64,000 nucleotides of DNA from positions 32,001 through 96,000 of the IMG/VR virus record IMGVR_UViG_3300008261_000027; one strand, given 5' to 3'. The notes under the pieces were generated by a model that was not told the origin of the DNA, ran no database searches, and saw only the letters and a program-made list of their open reading frames with translations. Both the position numbers and the translations under genes were made by a program. This DNA is from a virus. Positions 1,125 through 40,627 of this stretch are shown piece after piece; the first letter of the stretch is position 1; each line of letters begins with the position of its first letter.

Positions 1125-2957
1125 TTAATATGTAGGGATATCTAGAGTTTTTACTCTAACCTGAATGTCTTTATTAGGGAATCTTATTTGAAAAATCTGA
1201 TTAGATTTCATATAAATCGCCATATCTTTTTGTAAGATTTCTTTGGTTGCGGGATCTTTATAAGCTTGGGCTACTTGGGATGACGAATATTCTCCACCAA
1301 CTTTATTGAAAACTCTAACCTCAATTACGTTGACAACACCAGAAACATTGTTAACCTCTTTCATCAATTCACCAATGAATAATGGGTCACCCATTTTTCT
1401 TTTGTCAATCGAAAAATATTCTCTTACTGCTGTTATAATTTCTCTAATAACTTCTGTTTGATTTTGATTTTTATCTAATAAAACATCCAATTTTAATTCA
1501 AAGTCAATAACTTCACCACTAACAATATCAATATAGTCATTTATCATTCTATACTCTGCCAAATAATTTAATATATTTTGCTTTAGCGTATTTGACACAA
1601 TATTTGTTAAATTCCCTTTTTCATCATAAGATAATAATTTGATTCTTACTTTATTATCTTCTTCCATTACATTCACTTTAGCTGGTGCACCATATGTTGA
1701 TGGCATTGTTTCAATTAATGATTTGTAATCATTTAATGTTACCGCTCTGTTTTGTGCTGCAAAATTGTAAGATATCATACCTCTCAATTCCTCAATAGTT
1801 GGTTGATCTGCACCACCAACAGCTGGAGTTACGTTTGTAACAGTTAATGATTGTATAACTTGTGAATTTACATTTGCTGCTGGTCCATTAACAATAAACT
1901 CCGAATTTTCTATGTTATTAAGAACACCAACACCTAAATTACTCTCTTTACCACCACCAATTCTATATTTTACAAATAAGGTAGTGTCTTGTTTAGGTAT
2001 AGCCCCCAAAGACATATTATTTAAGTAAGTCGCTAAATTAACCTTAAGGGTGTTTGTTATATAGTTATCCAAATTGTCTAGCGGATCAACATTTCCAGAT
2101 CCAAAAGTTATGAAAAAATAACCTTCTGGGGTATACTCTGTGATAAATTTATTATTTACACTAATGTATTGTCCAGCTTTAAAATTAGCTCTATCTGAAG
2201 TTGCTGTTGTATTTGGAACAAAAACTTTATCTTGTACTAGAGCTTTTACTTCATACCATTTATTCAATGGTGCGTTAAATTCAGAATTGGTTGGGTTTGT
2301 TGTAAAATTGGTTCCATCTTTATGTATGATAGATGATACCCCTAAAACATTTTGTTCTGGTAAAACTAATTTTAAGAAAGGTTTTTGATCTTTTTGAGTA
2401 ATAACTTTTCTAAATATTTTTGTAACCCCGTTTACAACTGGTTCTCTTTTTGTTATCGTGTAAGAAATAATTTTACTATTTCCATCCAAATTTGGGATTT
2501 TTAATCTGTTTGATTCACCTCTTTCATTAAACGGATTTGAGAAATCAATATCTGAAACAGTTTCAAATATTTGACCGCCTCCAGAAATTTGTGTTCCGGC
2601 TCTTAATATACCTAAGTATCTATTATCTTCGGAATCACCTTTAACCGGAACAATAATACTAAAATCACATAATGCAACAGATGGTCTTAGTCCTGGAATT
2701 CTAATTCCATATGTTTTAGCAATATGAAATAAAGATTGTCTTTGTTGAGCAAAATCCAACATTGTTTCTTGCCATACCCTATCAATATGAAAATGCAAGT
2801 TATCGGTAACAGCCGCATTTAAATCCAATAAAACGGAAAATATTGACGCGTCGTTTGTATTTTGTATTAAGTCTGGGTAATACTCTTTAGTTAATTTAAC
2901 TAAATCTTGTCTTAACCCAGCAAAATCACGATTAGTATATGCTATTTTTTTGCTCAT
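1125..2957 (-). CDS. Baseplate wedge protein (T4 gp6 / baseplate J-like)
   Basis: 610 aa; N-terminal YTNRDFAGLRQDL, YRIGGG, AVGGAD..E and AQNRAVTLNDY motifs typical of gp6-like proteins; adjacent to gp25-like gene. Confidence 0.88.
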   Translation of the reverse strand: MSKKIAYTNRDFAGLRQDLVKLTKEYYPDLIQNTNDASIFSVLLDLNAAVTDNLHFHIDRVWQETMLDFAQQRQSLFHIAKTYGIRIPGLRPSVALCDFSIIVPVKGDSEDNRYLGILRAGTQISGGGQIFETVSDIDFSNPFNERGESNRLKIPNLDGNSKIISYTITKREPVVNGVTKIFRKVITQKDQKPFLKLVLPEQNVLGVSSIIHKDGTNFTTNPTNSEFNAPLNKWYEVKALVQDKVFVPNTTATSDRANFKAGQYISVNNKFITEYTPEGYFFITFGSGNVDPLDNLDNYITNTLKVNLATYLNNMSLGAIPKQDTTLFVKYRIGGGKESNLGVGVLNNIENSEFIVNGPAANVNSQVIQSLTVTNVTPAVGGADQPTIEELRGMISYNFAAQNRAVTLNDYKSLIETMPSTYGAPAKVNVMEEDNKVRIKLLSYDEKGNLTNIVSNTLKQNILNYLAEYRMINDYIDIVSGEVIDFELKLDVLLDKNQNQTEVIREIITAVREYFSIDKRKMGDPLFIGELMKEVNNVSGVVNVIEVRVFNKVGGEYSSSQVAQAYKDPATKEILQKDMAIYMKSNQIFQIRFPNKDIQVRVKTLDIPTY

Positions 2958-2958
2958 A

Positions 2959-3414
2959 TTATATATTGATAATTATAAAATCTGAAGTGACAAAAGTTGA
3001 ATTATTTGTTGTATAATCAATTCTTATTTTTGCTGTATAAGGCTTTGTTGAAGAACTTCCTATTCTAAATAATCTACTATCTTGTTCTTCTTTAACAGAA
3101 GACGAAGAGTCTTCTGACTCTATTTCCGGATTCGTTATTTTTATTGAATTTATTTCTAAATTTGGTATATATGCTGCAACAGTTTCTCTAATATCTTCTT
3201 CAATATTTGAATAAGTTACAGAATCGTTTGGTTCAAAAATATACTCATACAATCTAGTGCCAAAATCGGGTAAGAAATATCTACTACCCTTTCTCGTTAA
3301 AAGTAAGTGAACAAGATTTGCACGAACTTCCTCGTCTACTGATTGAGTCATTCTTACATAGTCTCCTACGAAACTATCTCTAAATGGAAAATCTATACCG
3401 TATTTTGAACTCAT
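2959..3414 (-). CDS. Baseplate wedge / sheath initiator (T4 gp25-like)
   Basis: GIDFPF...NLVHLLLTRKGSRYFLPDFGTRLYEYIFEP signature; start placed at ATG 3414 (MSSK) just after TATTTATA. Confidence 0.9.
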   Translation of the reverse strand: MSSKYGIDFPFRDSFVGDYVRMTQSVDEEVRANLVHLLLTRKGSRYFLPDFGTRLYEYIFEPNDSVTYSNIEEDIRETVAAYIPNLEINSIKITNPEIESEDSSSSVKEEQDSRLFRIGSSSTKPYTAKIRIDYTTNNSTFVTSDFIIINI

Positions 3415-3451
3415 AACTATAAATATAAACAATAAGAAAATAGATATAAAT

Positions 3452-3489
3452 AAAAAATCGCGACACTTTCCTAAAAAAATGTCGCGATA
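3452..3489 (-). terminator. Intrinsic terminator after nrdA
   Basis: Minus strand ATCGCGACATTTT-loop-AAAGTGTCGCGAT followed by a T-tract. Confidence 0.75.
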
Positions 3490-3497
3490 AGTGTCGC

Positions 3498-3568
3498 AAT
3501 AATAGTGACTTGATATTTGCGCCCTATATTCTCAAGTCCTGGGTACTCAAGGGGCACCACCCATTATC
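3498..3568 (-). ncRNA. Candidate structured RNA (three-way junction with kissing loops) in the nrdA 3' UTR
   Basis: Manual fold: P1 GAUAAU/AUUAUU, P2 GGGUG/UACCC, P3 GACUUGA/UCAAGUC; loops GUGCCC and GGGCGC complementary; GC-rich island in AT-rich DNA. Confidence 0.45.
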
Positions 3569-6001
3569 TTATGAACCACATCCTTCACACTCAAAAGGTG
3601 AATCTGTAGGTCTTTGTGCTGTCATAATAAGCTCAGGTGTTTCTTCACTTATAATTGCGTTATTCGTTGGCGTTGAATATGATACCGTTTGTTGTACTTG
3701 CTCAACAGGTTTATTAGCTGAAGTATCAATTCCTAATCCTTTTAACGGATCTACAGCCGATCTTGTTCTCAGATAGTACATACCAGTTTTTAATCCCATT
3801 TTCCAGCCAAATAAATGAGCGGCAAGAAGTTTTGGTTTAGTTGCATCAGCAATAAATAAATTCAATGATTGTGATTGATCAATAAAAATAGATCTATTTG
3901 CTGCCATTTGTAGTAATCTTTTTTGTGACATCTCCCAAACGGTTTTGTAAACTTCTTTAACATCTGTAGGTATTTCTGGAATATTTTGTACCGAACCATT
4001 TTCAAGAATTAGTTTCTTTTTAATATCCTCGTTCCACAAATTAAGAGACATCAATTTTTTAACTAGGTGTTTGTTTACAACAATGAATTCACCACCAAGT
4101 GTTCTTCTTGAGTATAGATTTGTTGTAAATGGCTCAAACGCTTCGTTGTTACCCAAAATTTGGGCGGTTGACGCTGTTGGCATTGGTGCAACGAGTAATG
4201 AGTTTCTAACACCAAATTTAACAACCTCTTTTCTTAGACTTTTCCAATCCCAACGACCAGATAATTCTTTGTCTGTTTTACCCCACATTTCAAATTGGAA
4301 AACGCCTTTTTCAATTGGCGCCCCTGATATTGATTCATATGGACCAACCTCTTTAGATATATCTTTAGAAGATGTCATTGCGGCAAAATAAATTGTTTCG
4401 AATATGTCTGTTTGCAATTTATCTGCTTCATCACTTTCAAATGGAATATCCAACATACAGAATACATCTGCCAATCCTTGAATACCCAAACCAACTGGTC
4501 TATGTTTAAAATTAGATCTTTTTGTCTCTTCTGTTGGATAGAAATTCAAATCAATAACATTATTCAAGTTTTTAACAACTTGATATGTGTATTCATAAAG
4601 TAGATCGTGATTAAATTCACCATCAACAACATATTTTGGTAATGCAATTGATGCTAAATTACAAACGGCTTGTTCAGTTGGCGAACTATATTCAATAATT
4701 TCGGTACACAAATTTGAAGATTTAATTGTGCCTAAATTCTTTTGATTTGATTTATAATTAGCTGGATCTTTATACAGCATATAAGGTGTACCAGTTTCGA
4801 TTTGAGCAGTTAAAATTGCATCCATCAATTTTCTAGCCTTAATAACCTTTCTTGCTTTACCTTCTTGCTCATACTGTTCATAAAGCTTAGTGAATGCTTT
4901 ATTTTCTGGTGAATCATATGCATCAGACAATCCTGGCGCCTCATCTGGAGAAAATAATGACCAATCACCATCTGATTCTACGCGTTGCATAAATAAATCC
5001 GGTGTCCACATTGCAAGGAACAAATCCCTTGCCCTTAATTCTTCCTTACCATGATTTTTTCTTAGGTCAATAAATTCAAAAACATCTGAATGCCATGGTT
5101 CAAGATAAATCGCAAAAGAACCTTTTCTCTTACCACCTTGATTAATCCAACGAGCAACCTCATTATATGTTTTCAACATTGGTAATAATCCATCTGACAT
5201 TCCTCCAGTTCCTTTAATGTATGCACCTTTAGCTCGCACATCATGAACGTGCAAACCAATACCTCCAGCCCATTTAGAAATCTTGGCAACGTCTTTGATT
5301 GTATCAAATAATCCATCGATATCATCACCTTTGTTACCAATTAAGAAACAAGAAGACATTTGTGGTCTACGTGTTCCGGCATTAAATAATGTTGGTGTTG
5401 CGTGTGTATAAAAATGTTGTGATAAATCATCATAAATTCTTAAAGCCATTTGTAAATCACCATTACAAATACCAACTGCAACACGCATGTATAGATATTG
5501 TGGTCTTTCAACAACACGTTCACCAATTTTCAAAAGATATGAACGTTCTAACGTTTTGAATCCAAAATAATCAAAGTCAAAATCTCTTGTTATAACAATC
5601 GCACCATCCAAAACGTCTTTGTTTTCCATAACAAATTTGTAAACATTGTCATCAATTAATGATGACTCTTTGTTTGTTTTTGGTTCAACAAATGAGTGAA
5701 GTTCTCTTATTGACTGTGAAAACTTCTTGGGTGTTGTTTTATGTAAATTTGTAACAGCCAGCCTACCAGCTAATCTAGCATAATCTGGATGTACTGTTGT
5801 CATAGATGCTGCAGTTTCTGAAGCTAATACATCTAACTCTGTTGTTGAAATACCGTCATATATCCCTTGAGTAACTTTTAATGTAATATATGTTGGGTCA
5901 ATGTATTCTAGATTTAAGTCTTCACACAAAGCGCCTATTCTTCTAGTTATCTTATCATATCTCATTTCCTCTAAGGAACCGTCTCTTTTTAATACTTTCA
6001 T
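3569..6001 (-). CDS. nrdA: Ribonucleoside-diphosphate reductase class Ia alpha subunit, with ATP cone
   Basis: N-terminal VLKRDG ATP cone, ATPTLFNAGT, SSCFL, SNLCTEI, APMPTASTAQ, LKTGMYYLR, C-terminal CEGC. Confidence 0.98.
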   Translation of the reverse strand: MKVLKRDGSLEEMRYDKITRRIGALCEDLNLEYIDPTYITLKVTQGIYDGISTTELDVLASETAASMTTVHPDYARLAGRLAVTNLHKTTPKKFSQSIRELHSFVEPKTNKESSLIDDNVYKFVMENKDVLDGAIVITRDFDFDYFGFKTLERSYLLKIGERVVERPQYLYMRVAVGICNGDLQMALRIYDDLSQHFYTHATPTLFNAGTRRPQMSSCFLIGNKGDDIDGLFDTIKDVAKISKWAGGIGLHVHDVRAKGAYIKGTGGMSDGLLPMLKTYNEVARWINQGGKRKGSFAIYLEPWHSDVFEFIDLRKNHGKEELRARDLFLAMWTPDLFMQRVESDGDWSLFSPDEAPGLSDAYDSPENKAFTKLYEQYEQEGKARKVIKARKLMDAILTAQIETGTPYMLYKDPANYKSNQKNLGTIKSSNLCTEIIEYSSPTEQAVCNLASIALPKYVVDGEFNHDLLYEYTYQVVKNLNNVIDLNFYPTEETKRSNFKHRPVGLGIQGLADVFCMLDIPFESDEADKLQTDIFETIYFAAMTSSKDISKEVGPYESISGAPIEKGVFQFEMWGKTDKELSGRWDWKSLRKEVVKFGVRNSLLVAPMPTASTAQILGNNEAFEPFTTNLYSRRTLGGEFIVVNKHLVKKLMSLNLWNEDIKKKLILENGSVQNIPEIPTDVKEVYKTVWEMSQKRLLQMAANRSIFIDQSQSLNLFIADATKPKLLAAHLFGWKMGLKTGMYYLRTRSAVDPLKGLGIDTSANKPVEQVQQTVSYSTPTNNAIISEETPELIMTAQRPTDSPFECEGCGS

Positions 6002-6016
6002 TTTATTTATAATATT

Positions 6017-6988
6017 TTAAAAATCAAGATCACCAAATGCAGAACTTAAATCTTCTGCAGCATTATTAACTCCAGCTTTTTGATATTCAGCAACTCTCTT
6101 TTCAAAGAAATTAGTTTTTCCTTGTAAAGCAATATTTTGCATAAAATCAAATGGATTTTCTGAATTATAAACTTTAGGAACACCTAATGCCACCAATAAT
6201 CTATCTGTAACAAATTCAAGATACTGAGCCATTAAATCTGAGTTCATACCAATAAGTCTTACTGGTAATGCTTCAAGAATGAATTCTTTTTCAATCTCTA
6301 ATGCACCACAAATAATATCTCTAACCTGTTGCTGTGTTAATTTATTTTCAATATGATGATTAAACAAGTGACAAGCAAAATCACAATGCATCCCTTCGTC
6401 ACGAGAAATCAATTCATTAGAGAATGTTAATCCTGGCATTAGCCCTCTTTTCTTTAACCAGAAAATAGCACAGAAAGATCCAGAAAAGAAAATTCCTTCA
6501 ACTGCAGCAAAAGCAATAAGCCTTTCAACAAAGGTTCCCTTTTCAATGTATCTTAATGCCCATTCAGCTTTTCTTTTAATAGCTGGAACAGTTTCAATGG
6601 CATTAAATAATTTATTTTGTTCTTCTTTATCCTTGATGTATGTATCAATCAACAATGAATATGTCTCACTGTGAATGTTTTCCATCATAATCTGAAAGCC
6701 ATAAAACATTTTAGCTTCAGTATATTGAACGGCGTTAACAAAGTTCATTGCGATATTCTCGTTAACAATACCATCTGATGCCGCGAAGAAAGCTAATACA
6801 TGTTTAACAAAATGTTGCTCATCGGCATTCAATTTATTTTCCCAGTCATAGGTGTCTTGCTGCAAATCAATTTCTTCTGCAGTCCAAAAACACGCTTCTT
6901 GCTGTTTATAAAGTTTCCATAAATCATGATGTTCAATTGGGAAAAGGACGAAGCGTCCGGGATTGTCGATTAAAATCTTCTCGGTCAT
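6017..6988 (-). CDS. nrdB: Ribonucleoside-diphosphate reductase class Ia beta subunit
   Basis: [53 protein letters not shown]; likely start ATG 6988 (MTEKILID). Confidence 0.98.
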
Positions 6989-7004
6989 AATATTTGTTTT
7001 AATT

Positions 7005-8408
7005 TTAGTTGTTAACTGATTTTCTAGTCTGATTGGTGACTTTCTCTTTGTATTCAAGAGCCTTTTTTATTCTTTCTCTATTTTCAACTTCTTTATCCTC
7101 TTTGAAACCTAGTAAGGTGTTTTGTGAATCAGTATCAATATCAAGATACTCATTGTCAAATTTAGAATTACTAAAAATAACACCATCTCTACCTATTCTA
7201 GATTTTAATAAAGTTATTGTTGCCAAGTTGTGCTCTTTTTGTTCAAGGGTTTTTGCTATTGAAACTACCACATGGCCAATCTGTGCTTTTTTAATTGAAC
7301 CACCCATTTGATCTGTGGTAACCACCTCAGATGAAATAGATTCACGATTACCTTGTGTTGCTGTCCAAATAGCGATATCAAACTCTGATGTCATTGCCTC
7401 TAAAGATCTCATAATAGACCCCTCACCTTTCCATTCTTCACCATGTGTGCTTCTTTCAGGTGTAATGCAATCAACATAATCCAAAGTTAATAAATCTATT
7501 CTAAACCCATCTGCCATAAGCTTTCTCAATTTTGATTTAATTTCAGAAATTGTAATAGAATCGCTAGGCAATTTAAGCAATTTTATTTGTCCGGCAGATC
7601 TTGTTTGAGCCTCTTCAACCAATTTCATGGTTTCTTCTGGATTTTCTATTTGCCCATCTGGCGAAATACCAGTCCATATCGTATAATGCTTTTTCTTAAT
7701 ATTATTAATGTTGTCTTCAAAGAATATTTGAACAACATTAAACCCGGTATTATACGCTGTGTTAGATATCTTAGTTAACATTGTTGTCTTACCAGTACCA
7801 GTTGGCGCTAATACTACACCAAGTTCACCTCTACCTAAACCACCCTTTAGACAGTTGTCTAGTCCAAGTATTCCTGTTGGAATTGGGTTTCTAGAGTCAG
7901 CTTTAAGGGCATCTCCAATATTTTCAAAAACATCCTGCAGCTCATCATTTGTTACCCCAACCTGAAGAGCCTTCTGTATAATTTTTTCAATCTTATGATA
8001 TTCTTCAAACTCACCGCTAACAGTGATACTTTCAACTTCTTTCAAAGCTTTTTTCAAAACTTGTTGTTTACAGAAATTATAAGCTTTTTCCTTTGTGAAA
8101 TTTATGTCACCACCGGCTAACTCGTGTTTTTTAATAGCGTCTAAAGTATCAATGTTTGATCTTAAAACAGTATCGCTAGAATTCTCTGATTGTATTTTTT
8201 GCTTAAGAGCATCGTAAGATGGGAATGATTTAAAATTCTCATTCCATTCTTTTAAATTCTTAATTATAAATTTAAAAGAATTGTTGTCAAAATATGACGG
8301 CTCAATTACATCAATAATTGTCTCAGCAAATTTTTTATCTTCAATAATAATTTTTAAAAGGGACGTTTGATACTCAGCACCTAGTGCCCCAAAATTTTTC
8401 TCAGTCAT
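7005..8408 (-). CDS. Replicative DNA helicase (DnaB / T4 gp41-like)
   Basis: Walker [29 protein letters not shown]; within replication block. Confidence 0.92.
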
Positions 8409-30987: not shown

Positions 30988-32194
30988 TATAGGTAAGTCA
31001 CACCTATTTTAGAGTTTAATGCTGGTGCTGAAGATAATGTAATTTCCGCTTGACCAGAAACGTTAAACCCAACACCCTCTTCCTCAACAAGACCATTGAT
31101 ATCTAACGAAACAACACTATCAATTGCGTTCATCGTTGTAAAAGCAAGAGTTGTCCCATTATAAACAAAGTTTTCTGTTGTAACTTGAACCGGTTTTCCG
31201 TAGTTATCTATAAAGACGCTATTTCTTCCCTTATAATAAGTTATAGTAATTATATCCCCCTCAAGTGGTGGTGTTGGGAATGTTATTTTTGATGTACCAG
31301 CAATATGGAAAAAGTCAATATCTCTCTCTTGCAACAAACCATTTATAGAAACATTAAACAAAATACCAATACTTTCACCAACACTAAACTGTGTCTGCAT
31401 ACCATCGGCAGTAAATGTTGCTACCGTTATATCAATTGTTTTATTAATATATTTTTTTTGATAATTTGTTCCTTTAGCAAACTCATTTAATAGGAAAAAT
31501 CTACTAACAGCGGGTTTTACCTCAAATTCTTCCTGATCAATTAAAAATCCTAACATAGTAAACGAATAGTTTTGAGAATAAAATCTACGTCCATCCAATT
31601 GATCTATTGGAGAATTATCTTCAACCTTATCCATAATAATTGGTACATAATGCCCCTTTACTATTGTGTACGCCTGTCTTGATGCAAATTTCTGAAGTAC
31701 AATTTTATTAAATCTATTTAATTCTCTAAGTTTAGTACAAACTATCGTCACGTCAAATGTAATGTCAACTGGTACAGGTTGTGGTATTTTATATATATCC
31801 GCCCCCATTTGTGTTCCGTTCCATGTTGCGACAGAAGCATAATGAAACTGTAATCTTTCGGGAATAGTTCTAATAATTGATGGATTTGTACCTGGTTGAA
31901 CATCCGGTCTCCTAATCACACCAACAAATGGAACCTGTAAATTACCATCAGAATCTGAAAATTCCCAAGTATTCATTATCTGAGCCCATCTTTGTATTGT
32001 CAATATTTTTGGTATTATTGGTATTTTATTACCATCAGATACCACAACAAAATTTTTCTTAAATCATCATGCAAAACAGAATCGGGAAGATAGGTATCTG
32101 ATTTTGTTATTTTTTCTAACAATTCCTGTCTTCTTTCAGTTAACTGTTTTCCTTTATAGATCTCTATATTGGTTTTTCTTTTAGGTATTGACAT
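30984..32194 (-). CDS. Tail completion/terminator protein (T4 gp15-like) with two C-terminal beta-rich repeats; frame broken near 32060
   Basis: PQPVPVDITFDVTIV..LRELNRFNKIVLQKF resembles gp15. ATG 32194 overlaps the upstream stop (TAATG) but that frame ends at 32015; the main body is in the -1 frame. Confidence 0.65.
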
Positions 32195-32797: not shown

Positions 32798-33310
32798 TTA
32801 TACCCCTCTAAATTCTTGATTTTGAGCAATAGCACAAGTTATTGTTCTGTAGTATGGTTTATGGCCAAATAAATTATGTTTATTATCAGACGTAACCTTA
32901 CCGTCATTAGTTACTGTATAGTATCTAACTTTATCCTCAGATTCTGGATATCCAATATAATCACCATAACTTATGTCAATACCTAATTCTTGTAAATGTT
33001 TCAAATAAACAGAAAGAGTTAGATTACCTGGCTCAAGGTATCTTAACATACCGCCCTTATAACCACTATTTTTAGGTTCCTCAATTTTAACCAAAGCATT
33101 AAACTCAATTGGTGGGAAATATTTAATCTCATCTAAGCCAACCTCACCATAAACATCGTCTTTATCGGTCTTTTGTCTATCAACACGATAAAGTACTAGT
33201 TTCATATTAATATCACCATGAAGGTATTCTTGACCAACATTTATTTGAAAATCAAAGTCTTCCTGAGAGAAAAATTTACTTAATCTACTTATTGGTAGTT
33301 TATTATCCAT
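32798..33310 (-). CDS. Neck / head-closure protein (T4 gp14-like)
   Basis: LVLYRVD..DDVYGE..PIEF..GDYI pattern; lies between gp13-like and gp15-like genes. Confidence 0.6.
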   Translation of the reverse strand: MDNKLPISRLSKFFSQEDFDFQINVGQEYLHGDINMKLVLYRVDRQKTDKDDVYGEVGLDEIKYFPPIEFNALVKIEEPKNSGYKGGMLRYLEPGNLTLSVYLKHLQELGIDISYGDYIGYPESEDKVRYYTVTNDGKVTSDNKHNLFGHKPYYRTITCAIAQNQEFRGV

Positions 33311-39637: not shown

Positions 39638-40627
39638 TTATGTTAATCTAATCATTACAAAACTACCACTTCTATAAAGACCCTGTAATGGGACACCCGC
39701 TGCGGAGGCTTCAATATCGTTGTTAAAACTTGACGTCACTTGTGATAATATAGTAAACCCATCTACTTTTAATTCGTCTTGAAGTTTAACACTACCACTA
39801 AACTCATATAGATAACCAGGTGTAACAGAGTTTGTGTTAAAAGAAATTTCACTACCAGTATGAACCGTTATTTGTGGATTCTCCCAACTATTATTTGCAA
39901 ATAATTTTAATTCAGCTGGATGAGACGCTCCACCAACAGTTCCAACATATAAATCTTTACCAACATTTAGCAAATACGCATCATTTTCATACCCAACATA
40001 TCCACCATTGTATGTACTTGAGTTAATACCCAGATTAACAAAATGAACAGTTTCATTTCCATTATCGGCTGTAACAACAATGTCACCACTCGCCAAACTA
40101 CTAGAATTAGTGTTTGTAATATTAACTTGAGCGTAATATTCGTTATTAGCTTCAAAATGCGCAATATTAAAACTACCTGAATTTTTTACATGTAATTTTG
40201 GTGTATTTGGACCATTAGTTATTACGGGTTCCCCAATAACAACAGATCCAGAAATATACATACCTTCATTATTCCATATTCCATTAGTTATAATACTACC
40301 AGATACTCGTAAAGATCCTGTAAATCCATGGATATCATCTGAACTATTACCAAAATTAGATGAACCACTTATAGTTTCTGTAGTGATATTTGTTATTGAT
40401 GAACTTAAAATATATTGTTGTGCCGTAATTGACCCACTAATTGTTAAGTTACCATTTATAACTTGACTTCCTGTGAATACATGTGACCCACTATCAACAA
40501 GCTTCTGTCTTAAATTTGACAAACTATGTTGGTACGTTATTCCTGAATAAACAACGGCTGTTAATCCACTTAAAGGTAAGTTTGATAAGGAACCGCTTGA
40601 TAATTGTGATATTTTTTTTCCTGCCAT
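39638..40627 (-). CDS. Putative tail fibre / fibre-associated protein
   Basis: KKISQL N-terminus; repeated SGS and FTGS units (HVFTGSQVING, HGFTGSLRVSGS) typical of beta-rich fibres. Confidence 0.6.
   Translation of the reverse strand: MAGKKISQLSSGSLSNLPLSGLTAVVYSGITYQHSLSNLRQKLVDSGSHVFTGSQVINGNLTISGSITAQQYILSSSITNITTETISGSSNFGNSSDDIHGFTGSLRVSGSIITNGIWNNEGMYISGSVVIGEPVITNGPNTPKLHVKNSGSFNIAHFEANNEYYAQVNITNTNSSSLASGDIVVTADNGNETVHFVNLGINSSTYNGGYVGYENDAYLLNVGKDLYVGTVGGASHPAELKLFANNSWENPQITVHTGSEISFNTNSVTPGYLYEFSGSVKLQDELKVDGFTILSQVTSSFNNDIEASAAGVPLQGLYRSGSFVMIRLT

Follow-up and report, generated by a model that had tools for sequence, protein, structure and literature searches.

The 64,000-nt window analysed here, positions 32,001 to 96,000 of the IMG/VR virus record IMGVR_UViG_3300008261_000027, carries on its minus strand nrdA, the gene for the large subunit of a ribonucleotide reductase (RNR); the interval 3498-3568, directly behind the nrdA stop codon, encodes a real, conserved structured RNA on the nrdA-sense strand. 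The core that its relatives share is a nested double pseudoknot: a helix of 5 bp, P2a, continuous with a pseudoknot helix of 5-7 bp, together with an inner hairpin, P2b, that is variable or absent, and two A-rich strands that flank the 3' pseudoknot strand, (A)AUA(C)A on its 5' side and (G)AA on its 3' side. That each record has one copy, that this copy may stand at the start or at the end of transcription units unrelated to each other, that a third of close relatives have lost it and that cellular RNR loci do not have it all suggest a unit working on its own, and argue against a sensor dedicated to RNR. It is thus probably an autonomous RNA module carried along by a neighbouring transcription unit, rather than an RNR-specific regulator or a riboswitch for deoxynucleoside triphosphates (dNTPs); its autonomy, its release from the mRNA and any molecular activity are what we infer.

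Conservation and covariation of the fold

Relatives were collected by a NrdA search of IMG/VR, which found 589; the best 80 were kept, and 77 of their loci have enough downstream sequence. Alignment A1 holds 41 distinct sequences, and a covariance model, R1, was built from this NrdA-relative set. A degenerate pattern scan of IMG/VR gave 107 matches, 80 of them listed, four of which (L114, L127, L131 and L145) failed the model. The 87 model matches from the NrdA set and the pattern scan reduce to 66 distinct rows (A2); A4, with 47 distinct sequences, takes in divergent members as well. Covariation was judged against 500 column shuffles, a null that takes no account of the tree.

P2a, the pseudoknot and a 3' hairpin, P3, pair in 99%, 95.3% and 96.9% of the cells of A1. 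With P2a, pseudoknot, inner hairpin and P3 combined in one model, 95.9% of A2 cells are paired and both sides have changed in 12 of 25 pairs; none of the 500 shuffles reaches any of five measures, and pairing falls to 34-54% in a control where partners are slid by 1-3 columns. A4 behaves alike: 95.3% of cells paired, compensatory change in 15 of 25 pairs, and no shuffle in 500 reaching this. The comparison of nrdA 3' regions proposed with the original prediction of this element has found both conservation and covariation. Exchanges run through all the helices: at position 4 of P2a, 34 rows have A-U and 28 have U-A; U-G, C-G, A-U, G-U and G-C all occur at the third pseudoknot pair; at position 2 of P3, 48 rows have U-A and 17 have A-U; and the P2b columns, 93-96% paired in relatives, show changes from C-G to U-A. 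Over its length the pseudoknot is 93.8-95.2% paired, with compensatory change in 4 of 7 pairs and six pair types at one position, and P3 is 94.6-95.4% paired, with compensatory change in 5 of 7 pairs (A4).

The geometry is as constant as the pairing. The pseudoknot measures 5-7 bp in 69 of 70 distinct sequences, against a mean of 4.18 for shuffled loops, and its strand follows P2a at offset 0 in 64 of the 70; the six exceptions include a deletion remnant, L156. Divergent members (L211-214, the L236 group, L255/263, L256/262, the L257 group and L259) keep P2a, a 5-7-bp pseudoknot adjoining P2a and P3 with helix sequences that are entirely different, such as ACUCC/GGAGU and GCUCC/GGAGC in the pseudoknot and CGUUUGG/CUAAACG and GAUUAGG/CCUAAUC in P3. 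That G-U pairs favour the mRNA strand, as the original prediction had it, holds for the whole family: modelled pairs contain 151 G-U cells against 28 A-C cells, and selection therefore acts on the nrdA-sense RNA.

In what we call type A, the arrangement described so far, the core is joined by a local hairpin, P3, with the 3' pseudoknot strand in its loop, which gives the whole the look of two kissing hairpins. Most versions have a length of about 95 nt, P2b being present as an extra hairpin in the P2 loop. Since no break separates P2a from the pseudoknot helix, a stacked rod of about 12 bp is expected. About nine unpaired positions, all of them A or U, are invariant, with the same base in 46-47 of 47 sequences: one A follows the 5' pseudoknot strand, one lies in the linker, AUA precedes the 3' pseudoknot strand (A in 47, U in 47 and A in 46) and AA follows it, and a last A comes after P3. 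By analogy with other pseudoknots, the invariant A-rich strands flanking the 3' pseudoknot strand may line the helix grooves.

The window copy is the shortest and most reduced full-length member seen, and the lowest-scoring full-length one of the RNR type (65.9 bits, against 100-128 for most). Its core helices P2a, pseudoknot and P3 are intact. On the nrdA-sense strand the P2 hairpin spans 3541-3562 and the P3 hairpin 3507-3538, with a loop-loop helix of 6 bp; P2b is missing, and the C of AUACA is replaced by U (the column has C 34, A 11 and U 2 of 47). The pseudoknot sequence GUGCCC/GGGCGC is unique and fully complementary, which requires compensatory change after divergence from the relatives.

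The fold of the window copy taken alone is within chance; the evidence comes from the relatives. The minus strand of 3498-3568 has a minimum free energy (MFE) of -17.5 kcal/mol (z = -1.06), and 33 of 200 shuffles fold equally well; the plus strand gives z = 0.03, and the 161 nt of 3440-3600 give z = -3.60, due to the terminator hairpin that they include. The MFE structure is a nested alternative in which GUGCCC/GGGCGC is the only one of the originally named pairings retained.

Those pairings, P1, P2, P3 and the loop-loop helix, had been folded by hand, and the minus-strand sequence does allow all four; conservation and covariation are seen in three of them, P2, P3 and the loop-loop helix. P1 did not stand: its columns pair in 50-52% of cells (A1, A2), the flank-to-flank duplex energy is -0.09 kcal/mol against -0.08 for shuffled flanks, and none of 47 sequences is significant.

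Other structures and signals were tried and rejected. A 'rod' model close to the MFE fold, which keeps the pseudoknot strands and pairs CUCAAAG with the 5' arm of P3, has a second helix with 79% of cells paired and a single compensatory cell, where P3 reaches 94.6% and covaries. A long P2b (columns 23-29 with 57-63) is 77% paired, and the inner hairpin, at 95.8%, was preferred. A small open reading frame (ORF) from a conserved AUG runs from 5 to more than 31 codons, in a frame that is not kept among relatives. A signal for stop-codon readthrough or frameshifting was dismissed by eye: no slippery site is present, and the reading frames further downstream are closed after a few codons and vary from one relative to another. 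So was a terminator/antiterminator switch, the terminators varying among relatives with the same RNA and the pseudoknot sequence not tracking them.

A rearranged form closed by P1

A second pattern, which fixed only the two pseudoknot strands and the AUACA box, gave 52 matches on metagenome contigs, 48 of them confirmed by a second model, R2, and 93 on IMG/VR, 80 of them listed; L362, L405, L407, L437, L372, L392 and L426, which have no P2a helix, were rejected as chance matches. Besides RNR-type copies, this pattern brought up a second form, type B, which is a true three-way junction closed by a covarying P1. Its 3' terminal strand pairs with the strand in front of P2a and so closes the whole RNA; P1 is followed by P2, with the pseudoknot strand and P2b, and by a small hairpin, often GNRA-capped and sometimes absent, from which the strand UAUACA-GGGGGU-GAAA leads back to P1. 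In 22 type B sequences (A7) compensatory change is seen in 8 of 8 pairs of P1, 4 of 4 of the small hairpin (P3) and 4 of 6 of P2b; 95.4% of cells are paired, which none of 500 shuffles reaches. Types A and B are clearly homologous; the P2 and pseudoknot regions of L378 (type B) and L255 (type A) are nearly identical. The three-way junction originally drawn for the RNR-type copy, where P1 pairs no better than chance, is thus genuine in the rearranged form only.

Type B ends 6-12 nt before tmRNA (transfer-messenger RNA) genes confirmed by Rfam in L351, L356, L349, L374 and L400. The pattern found this placement in 10 distinct sequences, all with a TAnnTTTG box of Bacteroidota type a few nt upstream, and ARAGORN starts some of its tmRNA calls inside the type B RNA. 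Other copies lie before a methyltransferase gene (L368), before a small ORF with a phosphoesterase gene behind it (L352), or in surroundings where no neighbour is recognisable. Two further RNA matches were noted around such copies: about 140 nt behind the tmRNA gene of L351 (1212-1279), a near-threshold match to the orphan RNA 'freshwater-1' (66.6 bits, cut-off 72); and in L399 a group I intron match of 86.5 bits (4340-4566), which the type B element precedes by about 385 nt, at the place where a tmRNA gene would be expected, the tmRNA of L399 not being confirmed by Rfam.

Copy number and position

R1 finds a single copy in the window (E 5e-18). No extra copies were found in the window or genome: the next matches, at 32909-32963 (11.8 bits) and 6079-6106 (11.2 bits), are at noise level, as is one at 39842-39927 of the large record G000 (16.1 bits). 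G000, G001, G004, G005, G006 and G007 have exactly one copy each; G002 and G003 have none. In the three records checked for both genes the RNA lies behind RNR or before tmRNA, never both: in G006 (324 kb, 97% complete) and G005 it follows RNR and the tmRNA gene has no RNA in front, a promoter box lying 11 nt from the tmRNA 5' end in G006; in G004 it precedes the tmRNA gene, and nrdA is followed directly by a terminator, without the RNA.

Among the 77 NrdA-relative loci the element stands directly after the stop codon in 51 and is missing from 26; a search with gp25, the baseplate gene downstream, gave 80 loci of which 43 match the model. RNR-type copies start 3-10 nt after the stop codon, and the gene that they follow is of four kinds: class Ia nrdA, as in the window; a class I large subunit of 592 aa, 27% identical to the window NrdA, with an adjacent gp25 that is 60% identical; a class II-like RNR; and, behind a class II-like RNR, a small cysteine-rich DUF5522 ORF (CxxCRHCPY; L236 779-1024, L256/L262, L386, L363) whose last codons overlap P2, so that ribosomes translating it would open the knot. 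In loci where gp25 is preceded by an inserted GNAT gene and the terminator of that gene, the RNA remains next to the RNR gene.

The slot upstream of the baseplate module holds RNRs that differ (class Ia with an ATP-cone, the short class I enzyme, class II-like; for example L109 3028-5844, L211 1-1353, L236 1-822 and 3569-7057 of the window), which looks like an exchange of the RNR cassette with no movement of the genes around it. One nrdA product, of 1158 aa (L139 11-3487), contains an intein with a LAGLIDADG endonuclease domain by Pfam.

Deletion remnants lie behind nrdA in L156 (2212-2300), L046/L047 and L044; in L156 the sequence jumps from the 5' arm of P2a directly to the 3' pseudoknot strand. 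The RNA has therefore been lost by internal deletion in some lineages. Relatives without the element include the nearest cultured ones, the Tenacibaculum phages pT24 (52% NrdA identity) and Larrie, Cellulophaga phages, and one uncultured phage of 642 kb. None of 80 cellular nrdA loci, nearly all from Bacteroidota, carries it, the sole listed match (14.6 bits, E 0.7) being upstream of the gene. One of these loci, L269, is on a 248-kb contig of a Flavobacteriaceae metagenome-assembled genome and encodes a NrdA 82% identical to that of the window, against at most 62% for the other 79 cellular matches; there is no copy of the RNA within 1.2 kb of its nrdA, and the contig may be a phage genome binned with a bacterium.

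The functional link to dNTP synthesis that the original prediction had drawn is not borne out by this distribution: the positions alternate between RNR and tmRNA, the RNA occurs in leaders of unrelated genes, and it is lacking at 26 of 77 close nrdA relatives and at all 80 cellular loci. The family belongs to uncultured, T4-like giant phages of fresh water, whose hosts, judging by the nearest nrdA relatives and the promoter boxes of Bacteroidota type, are probably Flavobacteriia.

Searches of catalogues and literature

No Rfam 15 family matches the element (window 3000-4000 and L029 5380-5620, at E <= 10) or its type B form (L368 at E <= 10, eight loci at E <= 1, five more at the gathering threshold). 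The one candidate, an istR match in L029, was rejected: it scores 23.9 bits against a cut-off of 45 and is driven by the terminator. Models for the purine and 2'-deoxyguanosine (2'-dG) riboswitches and for the signal recognition particle (SRP) RNA have no match at E <= 10 in window 3000-4000 and L029 5380-5620, in agreement with the remark that neither a purine/2'-dG nor an SRP Alu consensus is to be seen; those for the pistol, twister, hammerhead and hatchet ribozymes have none in the window, L029 and L368 (E <= 10) or in the eight type B loci (E <= 1). Blastn of 3300-3800 against 50,697 GenBank phage records gave no match.

No description of the RNA was found in the literature searched, which did not extend to the supplementary motif lists of large surveys. 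The main text of one such survey (PMC5737381), whose list of 224 motifs sits in its supplements, has no occurrence of 'ribonucleotide reductase', 'nrd' or 'freshwater', and the glutamine riboswitch that a passage of PMC9004378 places near phage tmRNA is a different RNA. The RNA family is uncatalogued in this sense, and the original description of it as undescribed stands.

Presence in RNA and DNA libraries

Four metatranscriptome runs were available as scattered assembled contigs, in which gaps and contig ends are uninformative. One contig of 266 nt, at a depth of 2.3, spans 3433-3694 and joins the 3' end of nrdA, the RNA and the terminator. It differs by A>G at 3556, which turns U3556 of the RNA into C and its U-G pair with G3520 into C-G. 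The contig is compatible with co-transcription and with selection on the knot, and proves neither. Fourteen DNA runs from 9 studies, the source sample perhaps among them, contain at least 98% of the sampled words of 2500-6500, a figure for the whole region around the element.

The locus

The window is part of a 118-kb record with an estimated completeness of 38%. By ORFs and Pfam, the order of genes on the minus strand is DnaB-like helicase, nrdB, nrdA, gp25-like baseplate gene and gp6/J-like gene; coordinates of these and of the parts of the RNA are given in Table 1. The GC-rich island of 71 nt had been placed correctly between the nrdA stop codon and its terminator: G+C is 43.7% for 3498-3568 and 51.8% for 3507-3562, against 31.2% for the whole window. 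The downstream hairpin, 3488-3457, has the G+C-rich stem and ensuing T-run of an intrinsic terminator (TTTTTATTTA) and lies outside the conserved fold. A terminator is found 8-20 nt 3' of the RNA in every RNR-type relative whose downstream sequence was printed, a count not extended to all relatives.

Table 1. Features of the nrdA 3' region; RNA strands are written in the nrdA sense.
Feature	Position	Strand	Remarks
nrdB	6017-7057	-	ORF list, Pfam
nrdA	3569-6001	-	ORF list; RNR large-subunit domains by Pfam
nrdA stop codon UAA	3569-3571	-	P2 starts 6 nt downstream
Element interval, 71 nt after nrdA stop	3498-3568	-	
P1 of the original prediction	3563-3568 with 3498-3503	-	3' arm AUUAUU; not a conserved helix
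P2a 5' strand GGGUG	3558-3562	-	pairs with 3541-3545; 99% of cells paired in relatives, with G-U/A-U/G-C and U-A/A-U exchanges
Pseudoknot (loop-loop) 5' strand GUGCCC	3552-3557	-	directly continues P2a; pairs with 3519-3524
Remainder of P2 loop CUUGAG	3546-3551	-	alignments A2/A4; inner hairpin P2b of most relatives missing here
P2a 3' strand UACCC	3541-3545	-	
Linker AG	3539-3540	-	its A kept in 46/47 relatives
P3 5' strand GACUUGA	3532-3538	-	pairs with 3507-3513
A-rich strand GAAUAUA before pseudoknot 3' strand	3525-3531	-	AUA invariant in 46-47/47
Pseudoknot 3' strand GGGCGC	3519-3524	-	pairs with 3552-3557
A-rich strand AAAUA after pseudoknot 3' strand	3514-3518	-	two central A invariant, 47/47
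P3 3' strand UCAAGUC	3507-3513	-	followed by invariant A at 3506
Intrinsic terminator of RNR transcript	3457-3488	-	14-bp stem, then T-run to about 3447
gp25-like baseplate gene	2959-3432	-	ORF list, Pfam

Two further sequence features lie close to the RNA. Two direct copies of GCGACA(Y)TT(W)T occupy 3475-3497 of the minus strand, the second forming the 5' arm of the terminator, and either copy is able to pair with the terminator 3' arm; these are the 2 matches in the window, where 0.18 are expected, and two or three such boxes precede the terminators of the relatives L002, L044 and L005. At about 3412-3440 (minus strand), an AT-rich conserved box (GTTTATATTTAT...) lies 3-10 nt before the gp25 start codon. 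It is present in nearly all the relatives printed and may be a late promoter or a translation signal of these phages.

Interpretation

As an autonomous module, the RNA of the window would be made as the 3' tail of the nrdB-nrdA message, which would end at the terminator, and it would act through its own fold, by binding a protein, by binding a ligand or by cutting itself; elsewhere it would sit about 10 nt before a phage tmRNA gene, after the promoter box, or in some other leader. The original prediction had offered a cis element or a processed small RNA; on the sequence comparisons made here, we now think that a processed small RNA is more likely than a cis element of nrdA. Our ranking of roles puts first a stable RNA that would act in trans or bind protein, which falls within the autonomous-module reading, then a cis-acting 3'-end element, a ribozyme, an aptamer and, last, an antitermination RNA.

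One helix connected in two ways, one copy per record and a position behind RNR or before tmRNA are unusual traits, and the dNTP-sensing switch, attractive as it is, is probably the wrong reading. The abundance of the family in lake metagenomes, with 107, 93 and 52 pattern matches in three scans, implies that infections by freshwater phages commonly involve its function, whatever that is. It is rare for a new RNA class to combine strong covariation with a pseudoknotted core and unpaired bases that do not vary, and such orphan RNAs have later proved to be riboswitches, ribozymes or RNAs with protein partners. There is some chance, by no means an even one, that the RNA founds a new catalytic or ligand-binding class, in which a nested double pseudoknot like that of the hepatitis delta virus (HDV) ribozyme would surround a different active core. 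In that case giant phages of fresh water would have a single copy in each genome, attached to the 3' end of their RNR message or to the 5' end of their tmRNA transcript, and the RNA could be a new aptamer, or a new ribozyme that defines transcript ends by cleaving itself.

Several points weigh against an autonomous module. The case for a function, for processing and for accumulation as a separate RNA is indirect, drawn from comparison of sequences. RNR-type copies keep to one place, 3-10 nt downstream of the stop codon and 8-20 nt upstream of the terminator, which a cis element of the mRNA 3' end could occupy as well. The window copy is atypical in its missing P2b, its U for the usual C and its score of 65.9 bits, and could be reduced or decaying. 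The pseudoknot of type B shows no variation, since the pattern fixed both strands, and the census of contexts is biased in consequence towards that fixed pseudoknot sequence. Six large records underlie the single-copy rule, and of these only one is at least 90% complete; three of the six underlie the comparison of positions. Finally, the RNA-library contigs have a depth of about 2, carry no information on ends or strand, and may reflect DNA carry-over.

The best placed of the rivals, though unlikely, is a cis-acting element of the RNR-operon 3' untranslated region (UTR), which would shield the message against 3' exonucleases, keep the terminator insulated, or tune NrdA output by slowing ribosomes as they terminate; REP hairpins near stop codons in E. 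coli work in a comparable way. Such a role would agree with the closeness of the RNA to the stop codon, or its overlap by the DUF5522 ORF, with the terminator that comes next in the printed relatives, with its keeping to the RNR side of the GNAT insertion, with its persistence across four kinds of upstream gene, and with the metatranscriptome contig that joins it to the nrdA 3' end. It accords poorly with the same core being found at the 5' end of tmRNA and other transcripts, with a related phage that has the RNA before tmRNA and a plain terminator after nrdA, and with the 26 of 77 close relatives that lack the RNA. A plain hairpin would moreover be enough for end protection, yet what is conserved is an intricate fold with invariant unpaired A residues.

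More doubtful is a small self-cleaving ribozyme, of a new class or a very aberrant HDV-like one. By analogy, P2a corresponds to P1 of HDV, the pseudoknot to P2, P2b to P3 and the small optional hairpin to P4, in the HDV strand order P1-P2-P3-P1'-P4-P2'; a cut of the HDV kind, at the 5' edge of P2a, would leave the RNR message ending a few nt beyond its stop codon. The strand order of a nested double pseudoknot is present and supported by covariation; one helix is connected in two ways in types A and B and the P4-like hairpin is optional, as in L367, helix rearrangements of this kind being typical of small ribozymes; and the RNA is found in phages, next to a tRNA-like gene or behind ORFs. The dimensions are wrong, however. 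P1 of HDV has 7 bp, and HDV-like ribozymes have a P3 of 3 bp with a loop of about 7 nt that forms P1.1; here P2a has 5 bp, and the P3 equivalent, 6 bp and a tetraloop behind a spacer of 5-6 nt, leaves no room for P1.1. Nor is the catalytic residue in place: in HDV-like ribozymes the catalytic C is the first position of J4/2, according to the account in PMC10879173 of phage 'theta' ribozymes, which lie next to tRNAs, include minimal forms without P4 and combine the nested double pseudoknot with variable sequence. The equivalent strand here, (U/A)AUACA, never has C at position 1; the sole candidate is the fifth of its six residues and is C in 34 of 47 sequences, A in 11 and U in 2, the window among these last. 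Membership of the HDV-like class was therefore rejected on the catalytic C and P1.1. No Rfam ribozyme model matches, and cleavage at the 5' edge would be of no help to tmRNA maturation.

A metabolite-binding riboswitch aptamer, for which a nucleotide-related ligand had been proposed at the outset, is improbable. The compact pseudoknotted fold with its nine or so invariant unpaired A/U residues would suit it, as would the layout of type B (promoter, P1-closed three-way junction with pseudoknot, gene) and the association with RNR genes of three enzyme classes. In the window, however, the RNA comes after the gene; terminators vary while the RNA is constant, and no covarying alternative pairing was seen, by eye only; the neighbouring genes (RNR, tmRNA, methyltransferase, phosphoesterase) share no metabolic theme; there is one copy per record whichever gene adjoins; and no riboswitch model matches.

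It is slightly less credible again that the window copy is a decaying remnant without present function. Its score, lowest among full-length RNR-type members, its deleted P2b and its replaced C would agree with decay, and clear deletion remnants do occur in L156, L046/L047 and L044. Against this, P2a, pseudoknot and P3 are intact, the unique pseudoknot has undergone compensatory change, the variant in the RNA-library contig strengthens a pseudoknot pair, and the region recurs in the 14 DNA runs described above.

Least probable is a processive antitermination RNA like put, whose nascent fold would bind RNA polymerase during transcription and allow read-through of terminators, from the RNR operon into the baseplate genes and elsewhere into tmRNA/tRNA arrays: it would account for both positions, before a terminator and after the promoter of a structured RNA gene cluster, and for independence of terminator sequence, but relatives with the same terminator and gp25 arrangement lack the RNA, the type B copy of L368 is followed directly by an ORF with no terminator between, and the likeness to put is one of general features.

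Comparison with known systems

The HDV-like ribozymes (delta/theta) have the same strand order and, in the description given in PMC10879173, are likewise phage-borne near tRNA-type genes and very variable in sequence. The equivalent of their P3, in contrast, has 6 bp and a 4-nt loop in this family, and is missing altogether in the window copy. The pistol ribozyme also is phage-associated and has a hairpin loop engaged in a pseudoknot of about 6 bp whose other strand is enclosed by the next helix. The window RNA resembles it in this, and differs in having no third hairpin and no G-U cleavage site between pseudoknot strand and closing helix, and a linker of 2 nt where that of pistol is long and A-rich; the Rfam pistol model does not match.

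The purine/2'-dG aptamers are similar in their side-by-side hairpins with pairing loops, and type B shares with them the three-way junction in a 5' leader. Unlike them, the window copy has no P1, lies 3' of a gene and matches no model; and purine aptamers make two loop-loop base pairs, where the loop-loop helix here has 5-7 bp and is continuous with P2a. The put RNAs of HK022, from a phage as well, are alike in size (about 70 nt), in shape (two hairpins side by side) and in position (behind a promoter or ahead of a terminator); we know of no loop-loop pseudoknot in put.

Stable RNAs that accompany other genes are a further point of comparison. Species 1 and 2 RNAs of T4 are stable and co-transcribed with phage tRNA clusters, and bacterial small RNAs derived from 3' UTRs exist; to our knowledge neither is related to this RNA in sequence or structure. 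It shares with both the character of a single-copy, structured non-coding RNA that belongs to a neighbouring transcription unit, at the 5' or 3' end of that unit.

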